Shown here: positions 22,915-30,588 of the stretch, one piece after another | Numbering within the stretch: the stretch's first letter is position 1 | Layout: the number at the start of each line of letters is the position of its first letter | Sequence record: KM092515 | From: Escherichia phage HY02 | Direction: 5' to 3' (one strand) | Length of the DNA stretch: 64,000 nt | Notes under the pieces: model-generated | What the model was told of the DNA's origin: nothing | Seen by the model: only the letters and a program-made list of their open reading frames with translations | The model's database searches: none | Program-made: the position numbers and the translations under genes

Positions 22915-23306
22915 AGATAATCCTCTTGTCTTCTGTAATTTTGAAAGAACAGGTACAGACCAATTTCAGAGGATGAATAGTAGAGTAACTCTACCCTTTT
23001 TGATTCCTTACAGTGATTGGTATTTTTACCTTTCTTCGGGTTATTTGATTTTCTCATTAAGTCTCCTTTGTAGAACAAGGCAGACCTACAGCTTTAAGTA
23101 AGATGGTACAGTAATCCATACAACAAGTCAAGAACTATTACAAGTTAAAAAAGTTGTTGACAAAGTACTTGACAAGGTGTAGGCTTATAAATACTTAGAA
23201 GATAACTTAAAAGGTTCCTCTAAAAAGGCTATTTAAACAGATATCTTTCTGGATATCTATCTTTTATCTTAAAAGCCTTTTAAGAGGTCTTATAAGAGGC
23301 ATACCA

Positions 23307-23678
23307 ATGAAAAACAGAACAAACAAAGGCCAGTTTAAAAAAGGCCAATCTGGAAACCCATCTGGAAGACCAAAAGGCTCTCGTAACAAAAGCTCACTTG
23401 TAAAAGCTCAACTGACCATTGATAATTCTGCTGAGTTTGCTGCAAAGCTGTTTGAGGCAATTGTTACAAGGGACGCTGCTAAGCTTGCAGAGTTCGGGTT
23501 AAACACAGACGACGTAACCATCAAGAGTATGATTGAGGTCGGTAAAACTATCTTTACTCACTCAGCAGGTGAGATGAAAGCACTTGCAGCAGACACTAAG
23601 AAGACTCCTGATAATGGTGGTCAACCACAGACAGATAACAAACCAACGTTCTCTGCTGTAGCGACTCTCAAAAAATAA
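23307..23678 (+). CDS. hypothetical protein with GNPSGRPKG motif
   Basis: N-terminal KKGQSGNPSGRPKGSRNK basic motif. Confidence 0.5.
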   Translation: MKNRTNKGQFKKGQSGNPSGRPKGSRNKSSLVKAQLTIDNSAEFAAKLFEAIVTRDAAKLAEFGLNTDDVTIKSMIEVGKTIFTHSAGEMKALAADTKKTPDNGGQPQTDNKPTFSAVATLKK

Positions 23679-23690
23679 TTTTAAAAGGTG

Positions 23691-23720
23691 TTGACAGACT
23701 ATACAAAGTTGCTCTAAAGT
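23691..23720 (+). promoter_or_regulatory. sigma70-like promoter upstream of the Ro60-like gene
   Basis: TTGACA, 18-bp spacer, TAAAGT. Confidence 0.4.
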
Positions 23721-23759
23721 CTGTCACATCAAACAACAAATGAGAGAAGAGAGTAAAAT

Positions 23760-25175
23760 ATGAGCGAGTTATTTAAACATGCGCACCTTCATGCAGGTCG
23801 AACTGAAAATGGTGCTGTAAACCATACTTCATCAATGTCTGCTCTGGTAGACTTCTACAAAGCCGCTGGTTCAAGCCGTAGCAATGTAGAAATCTTACCA
23901 GACCTGTTCTACAAAGCTTTGCGTGAGGATGTTGATGTTGCAGTTCGTATTTTACTGCATATGCGAGATGTACGAGAAGGTATGGGCGAGCGTAAAGCTT
24001 TCCGAACTGTTTTACTTCAAGCGATTGAAGATAAAGTTTTAGAACCTACACAGGTTCTTCGCATTATGGATAAGATTGTAGAACTTGGTCGTTTTGATGA
24101 CTTCAAAATCTTCGTAGGTACTCGTTTCGAGACAGATGCCTTCAAACATTTAGAAGCAGCATTACTAGACCCTGCAACAGCAGGTTTAGCAGCTAAGTGG
24201 TTACCACGAGTAAAACCACGCCACAAACAGTTTGTAAAACGTTTCTGCAAGTTTGCAAACTTAAGCGAGAAAGAGTACCGCACACTGTTATCTGCACTAT
24301 CTGATACAGTTGAACAAAAAATCTCTGCTAATGAGTTTGGTAAGATTGACTACAGTAAGATTCCTTCACTTGCTGCTGCACGTTACCAAAAGCTCTTTAA
24401 CCGCAAAGATGGAGAACGCTACAAAGCTTACATCGAGTCCTTATCAAAGGGTGAGGCTAAGATTAACGCTGGTGCTGTTTACCCATACGATGTGATTAAA
24501 TCTATTAAGTATGGTAATGCAGATGTTGCTAATGAGCAGTGGAAAGCACTTCCAAACTGGATGGCAGAAGGTGAAAACATCTTGTGTATGACTGATGTTT
24601 CAAGCTCAATGTCTTGGGTGAATCTTGGTTCAATCACTGCTCTGGATATTGGTGTATCACTTGCCTTGTATGTAGCAGAACGTAATACAGGTTGCTTTAA
24701 AGATGAGTTAATGGTTTATTCAACAAACCCTCATTTCATTGAACTGAGTGGTGATTTACGAAACCGTCATCGTCAGGTAATGCGTCATGTTGAATATGGT
24801 TCAACTAACTTACAAGCAGCTTTTGACCGTATTCTTGAGGTAGGCAAGAGAAACAACTTGACTCAGAAAGATATGCCAAGTAAGCTTATTATCTTCTCTG
24901 ATATGGAGTTTAATCAGGTTGATGGTGCAAATGGTCGTACAAACTTTGAAGCAATTCAGAGTAAGTACAAAAAAGCTGGATACGAAATGCCACAACTGGT
25001 ATTCTGGTACTTAGCAAACCGTAATGGTACTTGCGAAGTATCCGTTAAGGATAACGGTGTAGCAATGGTATCAGGGTTCTCTCCAGCAACTTTAAAAGCT
25101 CTGCTTGGTGGTGAGAAGTTTGACCCAATCAGCGTAATGCTTAAAGCAGTAATGATTGACCGTTATATCTGGTAA
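23760..25175 (+). CDS. rsr: Ro60/TROVE-like protein with C-terminal vWA domain (Rsr-like)
   Basis: vWA MIDAS motif DVSSSM (Ro60 has DVSASM); YPYDVIKSIKYG resembles Ro60 HPFHILIALETYK; FSDMEF resembles Ro60 FTDNET; C-terminal GFSPATLKAL resembles Ro60 GFDTGALDVI (from recalled Ro60 sequence, not a search). Confidence 0.65.
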   Translation: MSELFKHAHLHAGRTENGAVNHTSSMSALVDFYKAAGSSRSNVEILPDLFYKALREDVDVAVRILLHMRDVREGMGERKAFRTVLLQAIEDKVLEPTQVLRIMDKIVELGRFDDFKIFVGTRFETDAFKHLEAALLDPATAGLAAKWLPRVKPRHKQFVKRFCKFANLSEKEYRTLLSALSDTVEQKISANEFGKIDYSKIPSLAAARYQKLFNRKDGERYKAYIESLSKGEAKINAGAVYPYDVIKSIKYGNADVANEQWKALPNWMAEGENILCMTDVSSSMSWVNLGSITALDIGVSLALYVAERNTGCFKDELMVYSTNPHFIELSGDLRNRHRQVMRHVEYGSTNLQAAFDRILEVGKRNNLTQKDMPSKLIIFSDMEFNQVDGANGRTNFEAIQSKYKKAGYEMPQLVFWYLANRNGTCEVSVKDNGVAMVSGFSPATLKALLGGEKFDPISVMLKAVMIDRYIW

Positions 25176-25193
25176 AAAGTTTTAAAAAGGGTA

Positions 25194-25222
25194 TTGACAA
25201 TGTGTTTGATACCCTTTAATAT
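25194..25222 (+). promoter_or_regulatory. sigma70-like promoter upstream of the tRNA cluster
   Basis: TTGACA, 17-bp spacer, TAATAT; overlaps an inverted repeat AAGGGTAT...ATACCCTT. Confidence 0.5.
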
Positions 25223-25284
25223 GTTCTACATAGAAACGAAATGAGAGCTTTCCTAAGATACTGAAAAATATTTTAAAAAAGTTC

Positions 25285-25313
25285 TTGACAACCACTAAAA
25301 AATAATGTTAAAG
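25285..25313 (+). promoter_or_regulatory. sigma70-like promoter upstream of the tRNA cluster
   Basis: TTGACA, 17-bp spacer, TTAAAG. Confidence 0.4.
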
Positions 25314-25340
25314 TGGTTACATAGAGTTTGAAAAGTTTAT

Positions 25341-25417
25341 CTCTGTTTAGCTCAGCTTGGTAGAGCGTTCCGTTTGGGGCGGTAAGGCCGGAGGTTCAAG
25401 TCCTCCAACAGAGACCA
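25341..25417 (+). tRNA. tRNA-Pro (UGG)
   Basis: acceptor CTCTGTT/AACAGAG, T-arm GGAGG-TTCAAGT-CCTCC, encoded CCA; anticodon loop TTTGGGG. Confidence 0.55.
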
Positions 25418-25424
25418 AATTAAT

Positions 25425-25502
25425 GTTCCAGTAGACAAAATGGTATAGTCACCACTCTTTCAAAGTGGATATTTGAGGGTTCAAATCCATTCTGGAACGC
25501 CA
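25425..25502 (+). tRNA. tRNA-Glu (UUC)
   Basis: acceptor GTTCCAG/CTGGAAC, anticodon arm CCACT-CTTTCAA-AGTGG, TTCAAAT T-loop with imperfect T-stem. Confidence 0.5.
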
Positions 25503-25509
25503 GTTTTGA

Positions 25510-25582
25510 CAGAAGACCAATTACAGCAAACTTAATCTTATTCATCTGAAGGTAAATCGGACAAAGAAGAGATTTGGTCTGG
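25510..25582 (+). ncRNA. Y-RNA-like element 1 (stem-closed, no tRNA-like domain)
   Basis: 5' CAGAAGACC-AATT...ACAGCAAA and 3' ATTT-GGTCTGG can pair as a terminal stem. Confidence 0.4.
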
Positions 25583-25593
25583 TCATTAAGAAT

Positions 25594-25670
25594 TGCGGGT
25601 ATAGAGAAAGGGCGTCTCACATGTCTCATTAGCATGGTATCGGCAGGTTCGACTCCTGCACCCGCCTCCA
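25594..25670 (+). tRNA. tRNA with CAU anticodon (Met or Ile2), atypical D region
   Basis: T-arm GCAGG-TTCGACT-CCTGC, acceptor TGCGGGT/ACCCGCC with 1-72 mismatch, anticodon arm CATGT-CTCATTA-GCATG, encoded CCA. Confidence 0.4.
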
Positions 25671-25676
25671 ATTTTG

Positions 25677-25736
25677 CAGAAGACCGTATTCAGCAATAAA
25701 CTACTTTTTGCGGATAAAAGAAAAAACACGGTCTGG
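25677..25736 (+). ncRNA. Y-RNA-like element 2
   Basis: 5' CAGAAGACC-GTAT...TCAGCAA and 3' ACAC-GGTCTGG; stem bases co-vary relative to element 1. Confidence 0.4.
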
Positions 25737-25747
25737 CAACGTATTAA

Positions 25748-25821
25748 GGTTAGGAAGCACATGAGGTATGTGCGGTCGCCTGTTAAGCGAATGGCACAGG
25801 GTTCGAATCCCTGACTAACCG
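25748..25821 (+). tRNA. tRNA-Asn (GUU)
   Basis: acceptor GGTTAGG/ACTAACC, D-arm GCAC..GTGC, anticodon loop CTGTTAA, T-arm CAGGG-TTCGAAT-CCCTG. Confidence 0.6.
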
Positions 25822-25832
25822 CAAATTTAAAT

Positions 25833-25920
25833 GTGTCGTTATCCCGTAGATGGTAGCGGTGGGGACTGTAAATCCCTTGTCATTGAGACTCGGTAGGTTC
25901 GACTCCTACACGGCACACCA
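25833..25920 (+). tRNA. tRNA-Tyr (GUA), long variable arm
   Basis: acceptor GTGTCGT/ACGGCAC, anticodon arm GGGGA-CTGTAAA-TCCCT, T-arm GTAGG-TTCGACT-CCTAC, encoded CCA. Confidence 0.6.
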
Positions 25921-25981
25921 ATTTTGAGAGGGCTATTTAGCCCCTCCCTTAAAGGGTTCTTACGAGTATCCTTTAAAGGAG

Positions 25982-26054
25982 CAGAAGACCAAATACAGCA
26001 AGTTATTTAAAATTTCAAGCCAATTCAATTTTGAAAATTTAAAACTTGGTCTGG
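25982..26054 (+). ncRNA. Y-RNA-like element 3 (YrlB-like, no tRNA-like domain)
   Basis: 5' CAGAAGACC-AAAT...ACAGCAAG and 3' CTT-GGTCTGG; interior holds an AT-rich palindrome. Confidence 0.4.
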
Positions 26055-26067
26055 CTCAACAAATTTA

Positions 26068-26199
26068 CAGAAGACCGTTTACAGCAAAACTTAAACAATC
26101 TATTTCTCCGGTAAAGAAAAGGCGAAGGTTCGATTCCTTCACTCGGCAGATGTCGAGTTGGTGTAATGGTAGCACTTAAGATGATAAACAACGGTCTGG
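26068..26199 (+). ncRNA. Y-RNA-like element 4 (YrlA-like) with permuted tRNA-like domain
   Basis: terminal stem AGACCGTT/AACGGTCT; internally T-arm GAAGG-TTCGATT-CCTTC (26124-26140), acceptor-like helix ACTCGGC/GTCGAGT capped by AGAT (26141-26158), D-arm GTGT-AATGGTA-GCAC (26161-26175); T-arm precedes D-arm. Confidence 0.55.
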
Positions 26200-26204
26200 T
26201 AATT

Positions 26205-26339
26205 ATCTTTGTAGATAAGTTATTAAGCTTACCTGTGAGTATGCGACCACAAAGGTGAAAGGGTAAATTCTAGATTTAAACCCAAAAAGACACATCGCTA
26301 CAGACCTTAAGCAAGTCTGGGTAGCTTATCTACAAAGAT
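26205..26339 (+). repeat. structured element closed by a perfect 15-bp inverted repeat
   Basis: ATCTTTGTAGATAAG (26205-26219) and CTTATCTACAAAGAT (26325-26339) flank about 105 nt containing hairpin CAGAC-CTTAAGCAA-GTCTG. Confidence 0.5.
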
Positions 26340-26347
26340 AATTTAAT

Positions 26348-26423
26348 GGAAGTGTAGCAGAATGGTGATGCGGCAGACTTTTAATCTGACAGGCGATGGG
26401 TTCGAATCCCTCCACTTCTACCA
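26348..26423 (+). tRNA. tRNA-Lys (UUU)
   Basis: acceptor GGAAGTG/CACTTCT, anticodon stem CAGA/TCTG with loop CTTTTAA, encoded CCA; T-stem has two mismatches shared with the CUU paralogue. Confidence 0.5.
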
Positions 26424-26427
26424 ATAT

Positions 26428-26504
26428 GGTTCAGTCGCAGATAAGGTAATGCAAGGGTCTCATAAGCCCTATGAATGTGGGTTCGATTCCCATCTGAACC
26501 TCCA
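26428..26504 (+). tRNA. tRNA-Met (CAU)
   Basis: acceptor GGTTCAG/CTGAACC, anticodon arm AGGGT-CTCATAA-GCCCT, T-arm GTGGG-TTCGATT-CCCAT, encoded CCA. Confidence 0.65.
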
Positions 26505-26505
26505 A

Positions 26506-26581
26506 GCTGGTATAGTTAAGAAGGTTATAACACTCCCCTGATAAGGGAACATCGGTGGTTCGATTCCACCTACCAGTACCA
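26506..26581 (+). tRNA. tRNA-Ile (GAU)
   Basis: acceptor GCTGGTA/TACCAGT, D-arm GTTA..TAAC, anticodon loop CTGATAA, T-arm GGTGG-TTCGATT-CCACC, encoded CCA. Confidence 0.65.
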
Positions 26582-26596
26582 ATTTCAATAAAGTTG

Positions 26597-26625
26597 TTGA
26601 CATTGAGATGTGACTACTTTATAGT
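26597..26625 (+). promoter_or_regulatory. internal sigma70-like promoter within the tRNA cluster
   Basis: TTGACA, 17-bp spacer, TATAGT. Confidence 0.5.
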
Positions 26626-26828
26626 AACCTTAGTTTTCGTTGCGTAGCGTCTATTTTGCAAATTTAAAATAAATGCAAACGACAATGTTTTTCTGGCAGT
26701 AGCTTGATAGGCTAAACACCAGTGAGGTCTTCCAATCCCTCATCAAAGAATTTGGCGTACTCGCCCACGGTATGATTAATAAGGTGGGCATCTTTAAGGG
26801 CTTTCTAAGAGAGTCTTTAAAGATTAAT

Positions 26829-26905
26829 GCACCCTTAGTTCAATTGGATAGAGCAACGGTCTTCTAAATCGTTAGTTACAGGTTCGAATCCTGTAGGGTG
26901 TGCCA
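26829..26905 (+). tRNA. tRNA-Arg (UCU)
   Basis: acceptor GCACCCT/AGGGTGT, anticodon arm ACGGT-CTTCTAA-ATCGT, T-arm ACAGG-TTCGAAT-CCTGT, encoded CCA. Confidence 0.65.
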
Positions 26906-27047
26906 ATTAGTTAGCAGATTACTTAGACGACCTAAGCGGGTCTTCCTGTAGGGAGGTGGTCTGTATCTCATGTTTTCCAGAACATGTAAATAATCTGAGA
27001 AGGGGCTTTACAGTGTTGAGATAATACGGTAAGCTTCGAATTATAGT

Positions 27048-27130
27048 ATGGGACGATGTTAAGACTCTAAGGCATGAGCAACGGCCTCCAAAACCGTTTC
27101 AAAGGGGTTCAACTCCTCCGTCCCATGCCA
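27048..27130 (+). tRNA. tRNA-like gene, possibly Trp (CCA); oversized D region
   Basis: acceptor ATGGGAC/GTCCCAT, T-loop TTCAACT, anticodon-like loop CTCCAAA, encoded CCA; 83 nt and D-arm not foldable by eye. Confidence 0.35.
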
Positions 27131-27143
27131 AAGTCTTATTAGG

Positions 27144-27231
27144 GGTAGGTAGCGGCTAATGGTAGCCAAACTGTCTTGAAAACAGTTGCCACTGTAGAGA
27201 TACGGTGAGGGTTCGACTCCTTTACTTACCG
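27144..27231 (+). tRNA. tRNA-Ser (UGA), long variable arm
   Basis: acceptor GGTAGGT/ACTTACC, D-stem GGC/GCC, anticodon arm AACTGT-CTTGAAA-ACAGTT, T-loop TTCGACT. Confidence 0.55.
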
Positions 27232-27489
27232 CCTAATAAGATTTTAAAGCCAAGCTTCATTCGGATGTTGCTTTGGTATCCCTCGTGTATTGTCGTACAC
27301 ACTGATAAAACACCTAGTAGGTGTCACGGAGAAGAGATAATATCAAGCTCTCCAAAGGTTCTAGTCACCGGATTAAACAAGACTATGCAAAGGCCTTTTT
27401 AGGTCTTTTTAGAGGGCTTCTAAGGTTATTACGGCTTGTTGTGGAACCTTGTTGCTTAGGTTCTTAGAAGTTCTCTAAAAAGATTTAAT

Positions 27490-27567
27490 GGGAGATTGAC
27501 GGTAATTGGTAAACCTACCATCCTTAGAAGTTGGTGTTTGAGGGTTCGAATCCCTTGTCTCCCACCA
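27490..27567 (+). tRNA. tRNA with UAG anticodon (Leu-type) but short variable arm
   Basis: acceptor GGGAGAT/GTCTCCC, T-arm GAGGG-TTCGAAT-CCCTT, anticodon loop CTTAGAA, encoded CCA. Confidence 0.4.
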
Positions 27568-27574
27568 AATTAAT

Positions 27575-27650
27575 GCAGGTGTAGCAAAATGGTTATGCGG
27601 CTGACTCTTAATCAGTAAGACGATGGGTTCAATTCCCTCCACCTGTACCA
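27575..27650 (+). tRNA. tRNA-Lys (CUU)
   Basis: acceptor GCAGGTG/CACCTGT, anticodon stem CTGA/TCAG with loop CTCTTAA, encoded CCA; body paralogous to 26348-26423. Confidence 0.5.
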
Positions 27651-27656
27651 AACAAT

Positions 27657-27732
27657 GGGGTCATAGTTTATATGGTTAAAATTCGAGTTTTGCAAACTTG
27701 GGAACTGAGTTCAATTCTCAGTGACTCCACCA
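27657..27732 (+). tRNA. tRNA-Ala (UGC)
   Basis: acceptor GGGGTCA/TGACTCC, anticodon loop TTTGCAA, T-arm CTGAG-TTCAATT-CTCAG, encoded CCA. Confidence 0.6.
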
Positions 27733-27738
27733 ATTAGT

Positions 27739-27813
27739 GCATCCATAGTTTAAACGGGAAAATTACAGTCTTCCAAACTGAGGTTGAGGGTTCGATTCCC
27801 TCTGGATGCTCCA
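27739..27813 (+). tRNA. tRNA-Gly (UCC)
   Basis: acceptor GCATCCA/TGGATGC, anticodon stem CAGT/ACTG with loop CTTCCAA, T-arm GAGGG-TTCGATT-CCCTC, encoded CCA. Confidence 0.65.
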
Positions 27814-27820
27814 AATTAAT

Positions 27821-27896
27821 GCTCCTATCGTATAATTGGCTATTACGGTTGCCTTGTAAGCAACTTATCAGGGTTCGAATCCTTGTGGGAGCACCA
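27821..27896 (+). tRNA. tRNA-Thr (UGU)
   Basis: acceptor GCTCCTA/TGGGAGC, anticodon arm GTTGC-CTTGTAA-GCAAC, T-arm CAGGG-TTCGAAT-CCTTG, encoded CCA. Confidence 0.7.
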
Positions 27897-27993
27897 ATTT
27901 AGAGGTCAAGTGAAAGACCGCTTTGAGTCAACTGAAGACCGTAACAAATTCCACGGAGTTGAGTTAGCGGCACAACTTCAGACCTCTTTTCAC

Positions 27994-28068
27994 ACTCGCT
28001 TAGTTTATATGGTAAAACATCACCCTTACAAGATGAAGAAAAAGGTTCAAGTCCTTTAGTGAGTACCA
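27994..28068 (+). tRNA. tRNA-Val (UAC)
   Basis: acceptor ACTCGCT/AGTGAGT, anticodon loop CTTACAA, T-arm AAAGG-TTCAAGT-CCTTT, encoded CCA. Confidence 0.6.
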
Positions 28069-28069
28069 T

Positions 28070-28147
28070 GTTCCAGTATCCCAATTGGCAGAGGATGCAA
28101 GCTCAAACCTTGTACTAGTGACGGTTCGAATCCGTCTTGGAACACCA
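28070..28147 (+). tRNA. tRNA with CAA anticodon (Leu-type) but short variable arm
   Basis: acceptor GTTCCAG/TTGGAAC, anticodon arm GCAAG-CTCAAAC-CTTGT, T-arm GACGG-TTCGAAT-CCGTC, encoded CCA. Confidence 0.45.
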
Positions 28148-28152
28148 ATTTT

Positions 28153-28228
28153 GCAGGATTAGTTCAAATGGATAGAGCAACAGTCTACGAAGCTGTTAAT
28201 AGGGGTTCGAATCCCTTATCCTGCGCCA
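28153..28228 (+). tRNA. tRNA-Arg (ACG)
   Basis: acceptor GCAGGAT/ATCCTGC, anticodon arm ACAGT-CTACGAA-GCTGT, T-arm AGGGG-TTCGAAT-CCCTT, encoded CCA. Confidence 0.65.
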
Positions 28229-28247
28229 ATTTAAAGAGGCTATTTAA

Positions 28248-28805
28248 ATGAGATACTTGAAGTATGCTTCATGGATTTTCTTAGCTTTGCTAGAACCATT
28301 GGCAGCAATCTTAGCAGTTATCTTAGCACCTTTTGTAGTTCCATTTTACAGTGAGAAGAAAGGACACTTACCTTTTGGATTCAGATGGATGGAGACATAT
28401 GACAACCTGATTGATGGTGATGAAGGTCACGTTAAAAGATGGGCTAAGATTAGAAAGATTGGTAAGCTTGGTGTCTATTTGCAGAGAGTTGGATGGCTCT
28501 GGAGAAACAAAGCTTATAACTTCTCTTACCATGTGTTAGGAAGAGATGTAAAAGATGTTACTAAGTGGAAAGGTAATATCAACGTAAGTTCTGACCCTGA
28601 AGATAATCAGACAGGTTATCTCCTAATGTGGAACAGTAATGCTTGGGGATTATTCGCTTTTATCCCATCAATTAAAGTCTTTGGTAAACAATTCTACTGG
28701 AGAATTTATGTTGGATGGAAGCTAAAAAGTGTTGTCCCAGAAGAAAGAGCATTCTCAAGGGAAAGAGTTATGTTGGCATTCTTTATTCATCCACTGAGAA
28801 AGTAA
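28248..28805 (+). CDS. hypothetical membrane protein embedded in the tRNA cluster
   Basis: 185-aa ORF with N-terminal hydrophobic helix (IFLALLEPLAAILAVILAPFVVPF); lies between tRNA-Arg and tRNA-Gln. Confidence 0.5.
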   Translation: MRYLKYASWIFLALLEPLAAILAVILAPFVVPFYSEKKGHLPFGFRWMETYDNLIDGDEGHVKRWAKIRKIGKLGVYLQRVGWLWRNKAYNFSYHVLGRDVKDVTKWKGNINVSSDPEDNQTGYLLMWNSNAWGLFAFIPSIKVFGKQFYWRIYVGWKLKSVVPEERAFSRERVMLAFFIHPLRK

Positions 28806-28813
28806 AGATTTAA

Positions 28814-28889
28814 AGGGGATTAGTTTACAAGGTTAAAACCTCGGTCTTTGAAATCGAAGAAGTTGGTTCAATTCCAACATCCCCCGCCA
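28814..28889 (+). tRNA. tRNA-Gln (UUG)
   Basis: acceptor AGGGGAT/ATCCCCC with unpaired 1-72, D-arm GTTT..AAAC, anticodon arm TCGGT-CTTTGAA-ATCGA, T-arm GTTGG-TTCAATT-CCAAC, encoded CCA. Confidence 0.65.
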
Positions 28890-28891
28890 AT

Positions 28892-28970
28892 GCTCCATTA
28901 CTCCAATTGGCAGAGAGGCCAGACTTAAAATCTGTGTTATGTATCGGTTCGAATCCGATATGGAGTACCA
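28892..28970 (+). tRNA. tRNA with UAA anticodon (Leu-type), atypical architecture
   Basis: acceptor GCTCCAT/ATGGAGT (alternative TACTCCA/TGGAGTA), anticodon stem CAGA/TCTG with loop CTTAAAA, T-arm ATCGG-TTCGAAT-CCGAT, encoded CCA. Confidence 0.45.
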
Positions 28971-28975
28971 AATTT

Positions 28976-29051
28976 AGCGGTATAGCATAACTGGCAATGC
29001 AGCAGTCTCTGAAGCTGTCTTATTAAGGTTCAAATCCTTATGCCGCTGCCA
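28976..29051 (+). tRNA. tRNA-Gln (CUG)
   Basis: acceptor AGCGGTA/TGCCGCT (A1-U72), D-arm GCAT..ATGC, anticodon arm GCAGT-CTCTGAA-GCTGT, T-arm TAAGG-TTCAAAT-CCTTA, encoded CCA. Confidence 0.55.
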
Positions 29052-29082
29052 CTTCTAAGGATTCTTACGAGAGTCCTTAGAA

Positions 29083-29158
29083 GTGGCCTTATCATAAATG
29101 GTAATGACCCATGCTGTGAACATGGTCTATACGGGTTCAAATCCCGTAGGTCACCCCA
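29083..29158 (+). tRNA. tRNA-His (GUG)
   Basis: acceptor GTGGCCT/AGGTCAC, anticodon arm CCATG-CTGTGAA-CATGG, T-arm ACGGG-TTCAAAT-CCCGT, encoded CCA. Confidence 0.7.
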
Positions 29159-29163
29159 ATTTA

Positions 29164-29240
29164 TAGTCCAAGTAGCTTATATGGTTAAAGCGCGTGTCTG
29201 AAAAACATGAGAAGAGGGTTCAAATCCCACTGGACTACCA
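29164..29240 (+). tRNA. tRNA-Phe (GAA)
   Basis: acceptor TAGTCCA/TGGACTA, D-stem GCTT/AAGC, anticodon arm CGTGT-CTGAAAA-ACATG, TTCAAAT T-loop; spacing between acceptor and D-stem is non-canonical. Confidence 0.5.
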
Positions 29241-29256
29241 ATTTCAAAGGTGCTTA

Positions 29257-29991
29257 ATGAAAGAGATGACAGAACAAGGTAAGGAGATTTTTAATCTCTT
29301 AAAAACTGGTAAAGGGTTTTCTAACCCCCTTATTACTGGTGCAGCAGTTCTCGGTGGAACCGTAGCTGCCTCTACATCACTTGTAAGCTCTATTAGCTCT
29401 GTATCAGACCCTACAGTAAAGGATAAGCTTGTTGCTGCTGGACTTACAACAGTTCTGCTTAACAGCTTTACCACGAGTCTGACAAGCACTACATCAACTA
29501 CCAAAACACTAACAGATTACGGTCAAAAGTCCATTGATGAGTTTTCATCACGTATGCAGGTAGCAAAAGGTTACTCTAATGTTATGGGTGCAGCAGGTGA
29601 ACAAGTTGGCTGTACACCATTTAGTGGTATTATGGGTGTTGCTACAGAGTATGGTCAAAAAGCTATTGATACGATTAACAGTGCACTAGATAGTGTTAAT
29701 GGTGTGTTAAGTGACTTACAAGATGCTATTGACAAAGGTCTTGATACTATTTCTGATTTAGCTGAGCAAGCTGTTAGTAAGATTAATGAAGGTATTTCAA
29801 AAATTACAGCTTATGCAGATGAAGTTGTGCAGATGATTGAAGAAGAAGCTGCTCTTATTGCAGAGTACCTTAAAACGAATATCAATGGGTTCTTAGCAGG
29901 TATCTTACCAGACTGGTTTGATGATGCTTGTAAAACTGGTGTGATTGACACTATTGCAACACCAGAAATGAAGAACGCATTACAGAAATAA
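29257..29991 (+). CDS. hypothetical Ser/Thr-rich protein
   Basis: ORF track start 29194 overlaps tRNA-Phe; in-frame ATG at 29257 follows GGTGCTTA, the same context as the terminase start. Confidence 0.5.
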   Translation: MKEMTEQGKEIFNLLKTGKGFSNPLITGAAVLGGTVAASTSLVSSISSVSDPTVKDKLVAAGLTTVLLNSFTTSLTSTTSTTKTLTDYGQKSIDEFSSRMQVAKGYSNVMGAAGEQVGCTPFSGIMGVATEYGQKAIDTINSALDSVNGVLSDLQDAIDKGLDTISDLAEQAVSKINEGISKITAYADEVVQMIEEEAALIAEYLKTNINGFLAGILPDWFDDACKTGVIDTIATPEMKNALQK

Positions 29992-29992
29992 T

Positions 29993-30085
29993 GGAAGATT
30001 AACCCTAAAAGGTAAGGGAGCAGTTTGCTAAACTGCCAGTAGCTGAGAAATCGGTGTACCAGTTCAAGTCTGGTATCTTCCTCCA
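29993..30085 (+). tRNA. tRNA-Ser (GCU), long variable arm
   Basis: acceptor GGAAGAT/ATCTTCC, D-stem CCC/GGG, anticodon arm GCAGT-TTGCTAA-ACTGC, T-arm ACCAG-TTCAAGT-CTGGT, encoded CCA. Confidence 0.65.
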
Positions 30086-30089
30086 ATTT

Positions 30090-30165
30090 GAATCCGTGAC
30101 AGAAATGGCTATGTGCCTGTCTGCAAAACAGGTTTATAAGGGTTCGAGTCCCTTCGGATTCTCCA
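30090..30165 (+). tRNA. tRNA-Cys (GCA)
   Basis: acceptor GAATCCG/CGGATTC, anticodon arm CCTGT-CTGCAAA-ACAGG, T-arm AAGGG-TTCGAGT-CCCTT, encoded CCA. Confidence 0.65.
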
Positions 30166-30201
30166 AGTTATTTTACTCTCTCTCAATTAAAATAATAATA
30201 A

Positions 30202-30261
30202 TGCCCTGCTATAAGTATTCTTCCTTTCGCTACCGAAGAGTATTTTTAGACAGGGCTTTTT
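30202..30261 (+). terminator. compound hairpin terminator after the tRNA cluster
   Basis: outer stem GCCCTG/CAGGGC enclosing inner hairpin AGTATTCTTC...GAAGAGTATT, followed by TTTTTT. Confidence 0.5.
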
Positions 30262-30387
30262 TACAGAGTTATACTTTATAAGAAGCCTTATACAGTATGT
30301 CTCTGACGTACATTGTGGTTTCTCCTTGACGGTCTCTGTACCGTCTTTTTTAAGGGGGAACATGATTAATTATTTGGAGAAAACATA

Positions 30388-30588
30388 ATGAGCGAAAACA
30401 TCTATAAAGAACTTTATGAAGCTAATAAGAAGCTAGAATTTATGCAGAACACTATCATGGCAATTGCAGATAGATTGTCTGTAGCAACAGGTATTGATAT
30501 CAAAGAAGCCTCTATGGATGCACTTCTTGATGCTGTTGATGCAAAGTTCGAAGTTAAGAAAGAAGAGACTGCTACAGACTCTGAATAA
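30388..30588 (+). CDS. hypothetical small protein upstream of terminase
   Basis: 66-aa acidic ORF with RBS GGAGAAAA; position suggests a possible small terminase subunit but no motif supports it. Confidence 0.35.
   Translation: MSENIYKELYEANKKLEFMQNTIMAIADRLSVATGIDIKEASMDALLDAVDAKFEVKKEETATDSE

Follow-up and report, generated by a model that had tools for sequence, protein, structure and literature searches.

Gene content of the locus

The window analysed here is the whole 64,000-nucleotide (nt) stretch of Escherichia phage HY02 (sequence record KM092515), and its subject is the gene of a Ro60-like protein (positions 23760–25175, + strand) together with four structured RNAs, termed E1 to E4, that are encoded between the transfer RNA (tRNA) genes 3' of it. 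The open reading frame (ORF), which a first-pass annotation had picked out from the sequence alone, is real. It encodes 471 amino acids (aa), is orthologous to gp130 of phage Bas63 and has homologues of 97–99% identity throughout the Felixounavirus phages. The whole region is 97–98% identical at the DNA level in Felix O1-like phages (Felixounavirus: UAB_Phi87, ekra, Bas63 and about 250 more). As had also been stated, the gene is situated upstream of a tRNA cluster, which begins 166 nt 3' of the ORF and contains 25 tRNA genes, all on the + strand, between 25341 and 30165 (25 tRNAs according to ARAGORN, 23 according to Rfam).

E1 to E4 are located on the + strand, 332–1027 nt 3' of the stop codon of the Ro60-like gene. 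The gap between tRNA-Glu and tRNA-Met is filled by E1 and that between tRNA-Met and tRNA-Asn by E2, in both cases to within 3–8 nt, and E3 and E4 are located in the larger gap preceding tRNA-Lys.

Sequence and predicted fold of the Ro60-like protein

The protein matched the Pfam models DUF2828 (aa 173–264, 2.7e-29) and DUF7788 (aa 275–455, 1.7e-43) and was assigned to phrog_850 ('RNA-binding protein') of PHROGs; in public records it is named vWFA protein, RNA-binding protein or hypothetical. A scan against NCBIfam gave no match, and phmmer and profile searches of the PDB sequences gave no significant one. The structure was predicted with AlphaFold2 on an alignment of homologues (predicted local distance difference test score (pLDDT) 85, predicted template modelling score (pTM) 0.85). 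The model contains only helices up to about residue 265 and is alpha/beta thereafter. In a Foldseek comparison with the PDB, the top 12 matches were all Ro60/TROVE proteins (E 1e-8 to 2e-6), comprising Ro60 from X. laevis and human, Rsr from D. radiodurans and Ro60 of Thermus phage phiLo; the alignments to Ro60 covered most of query and target, and proteins sharing only the von Willebrand factor A (vWA) domain ranked below. The N-terminal, all-helical part (approximately aa 1–265; 23760–24554, + strand), in which there is no TROVE signal at the sequence level, is modelled as a HEAT-repeat/TROVE-like ring as in Ro60, and in the model this ring is closed by the C-terminal vWA domain (approximately aa 270–471; 24567–25172, + strand), the arrangement of the Ro60 family. 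From the predicted structure, we conclude that the protein has Ro60 architecture but represents a branch whose divergence puts it out of reach of the TROVE profile.

The vWA domain carries the metal ion-dependent adhesion site (MIDAS) motif DVSSSM, correctly recognised at first pass, at aa 279–284 (nt 24594–24611), and the five MIDAS residues D279, S281, S283, T349 and D381 are invariant across 40 homologues of 43–89% identity. The first-pass annotation had further paired several segments with segments of Ro60. Using HHalign, aa 266–444 were aligned with residues 362–535 of a TROVE-Ro60 alignment (probability 76%, E 2.3e-5), and the resulting pairings, DVSSSM with DVSGSM, SDMEF with TDNET and GFSP with GFDS, were those proposed at first pass. 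The TROVE-Ro60 alignment was composed of four phage proteins located by tblastn and of human Ro60, the latter in a copy not drawn from a database record; this human sequence also served as a tblastn probe, and its matches agreed with the record annotation at 36% identity. In a BLASTP comparison with ET08 gp220, a genuine phage Ro60, the segments appeared in the same order at E values of 0.96 to 9.3, which are not significant. The proposed pairings thus held as to their order and, by HHalign, in the vWA half, but not at the level of BLASTP significance.

Four structured RNAs between the tRNA genes

The pattern CAGAAGACCnnnnnCAGCAA occurs four times in the 64 kb, compared with 0.17 occurrences expected. 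All copies are on the + strand, at 25510, 25677, 25982 and 26068, and each is followed by a downstream 3' strand nnGGTCTGG, so that the four elements noted at first pass are real. They share a common fold consisting of a 4-bp lower stem, an internal loop with AGA opposite a single G, a stem P1 of 7–8 bp (AGACCnn/nnGGUCU, whose last two pairs covary too) and, directly thereafter, the sequence (U)UACAGCAA. The lower stem differs in every copy. E1 (25507–25585), a candidate short Y-like RNA, has the lower stem UGAC/GUCA, P1 AGACCAA/UUGGUCU at 25514–25580 and the sequence UUACAGCAA. In E2 (25674–25739), a second candidate of this type, the corresponding parts are UUGC/GCAA, AGACCGU/ACGGUCU at 25681–25734 and AUUCAGCAA, and in the third, E3 (25979–26057), they are GAGC/GCUC, AGACCAA/UUGGUCU at 25986–26052 and AUACAGCAA, with the addition of an AU-rich apical hairpin. 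E4 (26065–26202), a candidate long YrlA-like RNA, has UUAC/GUAA, P1 at 26072–26197 and UUACAGCAA.

Among 30 distinct sequences from the Ounavirinae, all 11 stem pairs were formed in every one, and three of the four pairs of the lower stem, a helix not used when these sequences were selected, had changed on both sides; slid controls reached at most 45% pairing. None of E1 to E4 was called as a tRNA in native order by ARAGORN or Rfam. Rfam searches at the gathering score and at E ≤ 10 returned tRNAs and chance matches only, including matches of E1 and E2 to Dicty_Class_I_RNA (E 0.4–6.5).

E4 additionally contains a permuted tRNA-like domain, which comprises a variable hairpin (26103–26119), a T arm (26124–26140, loop UUCGAUU), a 7-bp acceptor-like stem closed by a tetraloop (26141–26158) and a D arm (26161–26175, loop AAUGGUA). 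The domain has the layout of a tRNA that is open in the anticodon loop and whose acceptor end is closed, and its order of parts is that of YrlA as given by Chen et al. The YrlA-like architecture claimed earlier for the elements thus holds for the order of arms in E4, the only one with this order; detectable members of the Rfam YrlA family they are not. In the E4 orthologues of Mooglevirus and Suspvirus phages, the T arm, the D arm and the 7-bp acceptor-like stem are kept, the stem being formed by three unrelated sequences. The domain was also re-permuted in silico by joining the P1 ends and opening the acceptor loop, after which ARAGORN was applied. At the default setting, the re-permuted relatives from Citrobacter, Klebsiella and Cronobacter phages were called as tRNAs with the module as an 'intron'. 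Re-permuted E4 itself was called in the same way at the 95% threshold, with no tRNA called at the default threshold.

The T and D arms of E4, a weak partial Rfam match to tRNA within it (26091–26141, 22 bits, E 0.58) and the label 'putative tRNA pseudogene' given to part of the region in the LTH02 annotation would agree with a view of the elements as decayed tRNA genes, or as a repeat family of tRNA arrays, kept by recent common descent. However, the arms stand in permuted order, a loop closes the acceptor-like stem, the CAGCAA module is foreign to tRNAs, the stems covary while the sequences diverge fully among genera and phyla, and the elements of the window are recovered by models built from phages without detectable DNA similarity, as detailed below. 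These points weigh strongly against decay, which we regard as very improbable.

Distribution of the RNA module in other phages

DUF2828-type homologues of the protein were detected by tblastn in 708 phage records, with carriers among Felixounavirus, Vibrio and Aeromonas T4-like phages, phages of Listeria, Staphylococcus, Enterococcus, Bacillus and Campylobacter, and cluster L mycobacteriophages. For the analysis of neighbouring RNAs, 13 annotated loci and 80 IMG/VR loci were combined (93 loci, 835 kb; individual loci are denoted by L and a number). The homologue in Klebsiella phage KP13-16 has 51% protein identity without DNA similarity, and five tandem elements of the same design, two short and three tRNA-like, lie between this gene and the tRNA array. 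A loose descriptor, for which any 7-bp stem near CAGCA sufficed, was of no use: the gene strand had 445 matches, the opposite strand 337 and shuffled sequences about 177. It gave way to a descriptor consisting of AG, 8 ± 1 nt, CAGCAA, a 7-nt stem ending in CU and a final G, which matched the gene strand 167 times, the opposite strand 13 times and dinucleotide shuffles 4–20 times (about 12). Beside homologous genes, and on their strand, the module was seen in distant phages of Klebsiella, Aeromonas, Campylobacter, Listeria, Bacillus, Staphylococcus and Enterococcus. At least one match was present in 66 of the 93 loci, and outside the Felixounavirus loci the matches cluster in the 500 nt 5' of the gene and in about 1 kb around and past its 3' end.

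For a first covariance model, R1, the training set consisted solely of 27 short elements from phages outside the Ounavirinae. When the window was scanned with it on both strands and without filters, E2 (28.9 bits, E 2.8e-4), E1 (27.3 bits, E 7e-4) and E3 (22.3 bits, E 0.011) occupied ranks 1–3, followed by a fourth match of 15.5 bits (E 0.44); E4 reached only 11.4 bits because of its long insert. On 66 IMG/VR loci, all 50 R1 matches (E ≤ 0.01), from 40 loci, were on the gene strand, and in loci outside the training set 26 of 28 matches adjoin the gene. A Staphylococcus phage has three tandem copies directly 3' of the gene, and an Enterococcus phage has copies 5' of it. No significant R1 match was obtained in T4-like, T5-like and rV5-like tRNA clusters or in four canonical TROVE-Ro60 loci. 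R1 also missed the GC-rich elements of mycobacteriophage LeBron.

Since R1 was weak on E4 and blind to the LeBron elements, a second model, R2, was built from Ounavirinae E4 orthologues only. Beside the gene, it detected relatives of full length in Klebsiella (67 and 62 bits, top E 1e-12), Enterococcus (52 bits) and Bacillus phages (51 and 41 bits, one of them filling an inter-tRNA gap exactly), and also in Sinorhizobium and LeBron loci (the latter 32.5 bits); 49 of 50 matches were on the gene strand. R2 matches of 23–37 bits that extended across two adjacent tRNA-like genes (L006 6940–7074; T4-like L094 4503–4627) were not counted. In an alignment of the best 26 R2 matches, which is fitted to the model and so favours the structure, 97.5% of cells were paired, 24 of 27 pairs had changed on both sides and the acceptor-like stem showed covariation at 7 of 7 pairs; the covariation score was 0.65, compared with 0.16 after shuffling and at most 0.09 after sliding. 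A MAFFT alignment of the long-type elements of distant phages (A7) was too rough for annotation by hand, and no model was made from it.

The module also occurs in two further settings. In Cronobacter phage LPCS28 (L006 6895–7018 and 7024–7140) and Aeromonas phage LAh_6 (L005 2494–2613), tRNA-like genes of normal order carry inserts of 43–48 nt at the anticodon position that contain UAUUCAGCA or UUACAGCAA, and these genes resemble chimeras in which a tRNA body, not permuted, is combined with the module. In at least eight lineages, the 3' strand of the module (..YCU-G) is followed without a break by the Shine-Dalgarno sequence of the Ro60-like gene and its start codon. Modules abutting or overlapping the ribosome binding site or start codon were found at L005 4902–4970 (...CAUUCUGAAAGGAGUUCUUAUG) and L004 4958–5011 and in L035, L036, L061, L081, L077, L056, L034 and L009, an arrangement that suggests translational autoregulation by ligand mimicry.

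These leader copies, together with an AUG located inside the 3' strand of the module in Vibrio phage ValKK3 and copies 5' of several other genes in LAh_6, are what could be expected if the module were chiefly cis-acting, either as a translational operator for the protein and perhaps its neighbours or as a signal for processing or stability of the tRNA operon. Yet the HY02 window has no module upstream of the Ro60-like gene, all four copies lie within the tRNA array, where they fill gaps like tRNA-sized cassettes, and an operator would have no need of the complete, covarying tRNA-like domain of E4 and its many relatives. The two roles would, moreover, be compatible, ligand-mimicking operators presumably being common for RNA-binding proteins. 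A chiefly cis-acting module is therefore considered unlikely.

The same distribution bears on the idea that the Ro60-fold protein works without RNA, for instance by inhibiting the Ppl nuclease or another host factor via its vWA/MIDAS domain, and that the RNAs are unrelated to it. This would be in line with the proposal, made in the PhageMaP study, that gp130 blocks Ppl-mediated DNA degradation (PMC11482910), with the nature of vWA/MIDAS domains as protein-interaction modules, with one record in which a homologue is labelled 'putative structural protein' and with the loci that have no module near the gene. Against it, the module follows the gene by strand and position in phages of Gram-negative, Gram-positive and actinobacterial hosts, and the scanned tRNA clusters of phages without the gene are also without the module. 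Because this tracking, and the absence elsewhere, are hard to explain otherwise, a functional link between protein and RNA is favoured, and action of the protein without RNA appears quite improbable.

Proposed function of the protein and its RNAs

Taken as a whole, the locus is best explained as encoding a Ro60-type protein and four partner RNAs that form one ribonucleoprotein system, to which we assign a rough probability of 0.66. According to this explanation, the ORF would encode a divergent Ro60-type protein, with a helical ring and a vWA/MIDAS domain, of the DUF2828/DUF7788 or PHROG 850 family, and the downstream tRNA operon would encode at least four small RNAs built on one module. The module comprises a closing stem with the base 5'-AG...CU-3' followed by an unpaired G, and (U)UACAGCAA directly 3' of the 5' strand of the stem; the stem plus CAGCAA is the candidate site of protein binding. 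E1 to E3 would be hairpin-type partners comparable to YrlB, and E4, as the module joined to a circularly permuted tRNA-like domain, would be comparable to YrlA. Transcription of the RNAs may start, together with that of the tRNAs, at sigma-70-like promoters (25194, 25285 and 26597). The tRNA enzymes of the host would then excise them, RNase P cutting where the next tRNA begins at its 5' end and the preceding tRNA being matured at its 3' end. The resulting ribonucleoprotein might have RNA as its target: it could tether the RNA or tRNA enzymes of the host or serve them as a decoy, or it could take part in the surveillance or repair of RNA. It may contribute to counter-defence; the latter is proposed because Bas63 gp130 has been reported to counter Ppl. 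The explanation is carried by the Ro60 fold of the predicted structure, the covarying RNA structures and the linkage of gene and module across phyla, whereas direct binding, processing, stability and the biological role of the RNAs are what we infer from them.

Several results weigh against this explanation. At the protein level, the Pfam scan at E ≤ 1 found neither the TROVE model (PF05731), a match to which had been proposed as a check at first pass, nor a VWA model; a profile of 40 sequences reached Ro60 among the PDB sequences at an E value of about 1 only, with the alignment at the MIDAS; and the HHalign similarity to TROVE-Ro60 is confined to the vWA half. The miss by the TROVE hidden Markov model is not accompanied by an unrelated fold, since the predicted fold is that of Ro60 in spite of it, so that the reading stands. 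At the RNA level, the Rfam models RF02553 (YrlA) and Y_RNA, the other profile check proposed, gave zero matches at E ≤ 10 in 23000–30400, and the canonical motif GNCGAAN0-1G is not present as such in E1 to E4. As regards linkage, the descriptor had no match in 27 of the 93 loci, and the Erwinia jumbo phage and Aeromonas phage Ah1 showed no module within the flanks examined. The covariation counts pool paralogues and orthologues, and the alignment of the R2 matches (A9) is model-fitted, for which reasons the independent covariation events are fewer than the cell counts. Finally, because the module abuts the gene's own Shine-Dalgarno sequence in several phages, part of its role may be cis-regulatory rather than that of a free RNA. 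On balance, the observation made at first pass is confirmed, and its interpretation as a Ro60/Y-RNA system is supported.

Beyond HY02, we see somewhat better than even odds that the module defines a class of phage Y-like RNAs that is widespread and has not been described before, that these RNAs are the cognate ligands of proteins of the DUF2828/PHROG 850 branch, and that the two form ribonucleoproteins directed against RNA- or nuclease-based host defences. At least 700 sequenced phages carry this branch, their hosts being Gram-negative, Gram-positive and actinobacterial, and the module takes the forms of a hairpin only, a fusion to a permuted tRNA-like domain, an insert at the anticodon position and a leader on the protein's own ribosome binding site.

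Ro60–Y RNA particles are studied from bacteria to human, and their role in phages is barely known. For a protein family labelled only 'RNA-binding protein' or DUF2828 in hundreds of phages, among them Felix O1-like, Listeria P100-like, Staphylococcus and Enterococcus phages of relevance to therapy, there are now candidate RNA partners whose putative binding module is defined and can be mutated, and the reported anti-Ppl activity of Bas63 gp130 becomes testable at the RNA level. The elements also account for several of the 'empty' gaps, and of the spurious small ORFs, within the tRNA arrays of phages and provide seed data for a new RNA family, amounting to two covariance models.

Other features of the region

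Directly 3' of E4, a possible fifth structured RNA (26201–26343, + strand) has a closing stem of approximately 24 bp and a branched core (minimum free energy -46.3 kcal/mol, z -5.0), and compensatory changes are seen in comparison with its Mooglevirus and Suspvirus relatives. Its core holds a hairpin, AGACC-UUAAGCAA-GUCUGG, that resembles a miniature module; it is at most a possible member of the Ro60-like/RNA system. One row of the alignment of its relatives (A6) was spoiled by a truncated locus (L027). In relatives, this segment is overlaid by an annotated hypothetical ORF on the minus strand.

Upstream of the Ro60-like gene, a candidate sigma-70-like promoter (TTGACA-18-TAAAGT, 23691–23720, + strand) matches the consensus at 10 of 12 positions, which is not evidence of function. 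It is overlapped by an inverted repeat, GACAGACU...AGUCUGUC (23691–23727), that may be an operator. Two further candidate promoters of this type (25194–25222 and 25285–25314, + strand) are located between the gene and the first tRNA. The upstream gene (23307–23678) encodes a DUF5681 protein of 123 aa (PHROG 4114, unknown function); it was rejected as a conserved partner, as it accompanies the Ro60-like gene in the Ounavirinae only.

Within the array, HY02 lacks a tRNA-Asp that Bas63, UAB_Phi87 and most relatives have after tRNA-Tyr, and the spacing is what would be expected if about 83 nt were cleanly absent. A spacer of 65 nt that precedes E3 (25921–25985) is kept and contains two small hairpins. 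A tRNA-like sequence at 27050–27131, uncalled by ARAGORN and matched weakly by the tRNA-Sec model (23 bits, E 0.53), is 71% similar to tRNA-Arg (26851–26892); it may represent a pseudogene, or else a tRNA of unusual type whose anticodon loop is enlarged. Further long gaps without annotated function are found at 26582–26828, 26906–27049 and 27234–27489; the first of them contains the best promoter-like site of the region (26597, 11 of 12 positions) and weak transfer-messenger RNA (tmRNA)-like matches far below threshold (E 0.003–0.005).

In other phages, a drum RNA (RF02958, 50.2 bits, above gathering) was detected in the tRNA cluster near the Ro60-like gene of Listeria phage LMTA-34 (L011 941–1039). 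Genes of the RNA ligase/RtcB type are located a few kb from the Ro60-like gene in Aeromonas (L005 10070–10993), Listeria (L011 7808–9019 and 10580 onward) and Erwinia (L103 1257–2516) phages, which fits a context of RNA repair or surveillance and proves nothing.

Comparison with known systems

The closest precedent is Bas63 (Escherichia phage JohannRWettstein), whose bas63_0130 is the direct orthologue of the HY02 gene and occupies the same place 5' of the same tRNA array, at about 97% DNA identity. In a PhageMaP preprint of 2024, Bas63 gp130 was described as structurally highly similar to Ro60 and as countering the Ppl defence, and the authors surmised that some of the annotated tRNAs beside gp130 may be Y RNAs (PMC11482910). 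That study named no RNA, whereas E1 to E4 lie outside the annotated tRNAs, in unannotated gaps or under spurious minus-strand ORFs. In the literature searched on DUF2828, on Felixounavirus and Y RNA and on Ro60 and anti-defence, no account of these RNAs was found. The Ro60/Y-RNA idea has thus already been published for the orthologue of this gene, and the RNAs and the RNA family appear to be new.

A phage precedent with defined RNAs is the Ro60 of Thermus phage phiLo, which binds two phage Y-like RNAs, Yrl1 and Yrl2, encoded beside its gene (PMC12135203; PDB 9KOP, 9L5Y) and has been proposed to hijack host PNPase as an anti-defence measure (NAR 2025, PMC12135203). HY02 resembles phiLo in having a Ro60-type protein with phage-encoded, in HY02 candidate, Y-like RNAs next to the gene; it differs in that the phiLo protein is recognisable as TROVE and its RNAs, chosen via a CGAA motif, are not within a tRNA array.

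In mycobacteriophage, Gordonia and Streptomyces phages with TROVE-type Ro60 (ET08 gp220, Sixama gp163), the gene likewise lies beside tRNA genes. Sixama (L098 5968–6389 and 6874–6972) has the TROVE Ro60 gene followed by a tmRNA gene and a tRNA array, and there a YrlA takes up the whole space between two tRNA genes, just like E1 and E2 in HY02. These phages represent another branch of the protein (358 records, compared with 708 of the DUF2828 type), with largely different hosts and a different RNA module. As a positive control, RF02553 recovered YrlA beside TROVE Ro60 in Sixama (46.8 bits, E 1.5e-7) and ET08 (37.4 bits, E 8e-5), and it had no match at the gathering score in nine loci homologous to that of HY02; conversely, R1 and R2 do not recover the canonical YrlAs of TROVE-Ro60 loci. 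The canonical phage copies read GGCCGA(N5-8)UCGGUUAYC, whereas the present class has an AGR-stem and UUACAGCAA.

Small RNAs within a phage tRNA operon are also found in T4, where the stable RNAs species 1 and 2 (rnaC and rnaD), whose function is unknown, are located at the end of the tRNA cluster and are co-processed with tRNAs; the likeness to HY02 was drawn partly from the annotation of RB10. Unlike HY02, the T4-type phages compared have no Ro60-like gene, and R1 and R2 gave no significant match in them.

In bacteria, Rsr is accompanied by YrlA and YrlB, as in S. Typhimurium, with such RNAs in more than 250 species (Chen et al. 2014, PMC4201824; RF02553), and Y RNAs adjoining Ro60 have been listed for bacteria and 22 phages (Chen et al. 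2014, PMC4201824). The HY02 system differs from this one in that its protein lacks a TROVE signature and its RNAs are unmatched by RF02553 at E ≤ 10. The two are alike in the following: a ring protein with a vWA/MIDAS domain is encoded within a few kb of its known or proposed partner RNAs and on the same strand, one long RNA has the variable hairpin, T arm, closed acceptor-like stem and D arm, shorter RNAs lack the tRNA-like part, and the terminal stem is interrupted by an internal loop. As in Y RNAs, the 5' and 3' ends are paired (100%, with compensatory changes), E1 to E4 are all on the gene strand and closer to the Ro60-like gene than the limit of 4 kb used for proximity by Chen et al. 2014, an arrangement that recurs across the set of 93 loci, and the UUAC following the stem fits the conserved YUAY. 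E1 to E4 read nnC-AGAAG-ACC, that is CAGAAG and not CGAAG. The likeness of CAGAAG to the Ro60-binding GNCGAAG was not relied on, because the wider family reads AAAGR (aAAGR). Both classes thus follow one design, in which the terminal stem is interrupted by an internal loop, a permuted tRNA-like domain may be present and the RNA lies next to the gene; the module for recognition is not the canonical one, which fits the divergence of the protein. The HY02 RNAs would accordingly represent a second, sequence-distinct lineage in which tRNA mimicry is joined to a putative Ro60-binding stem.

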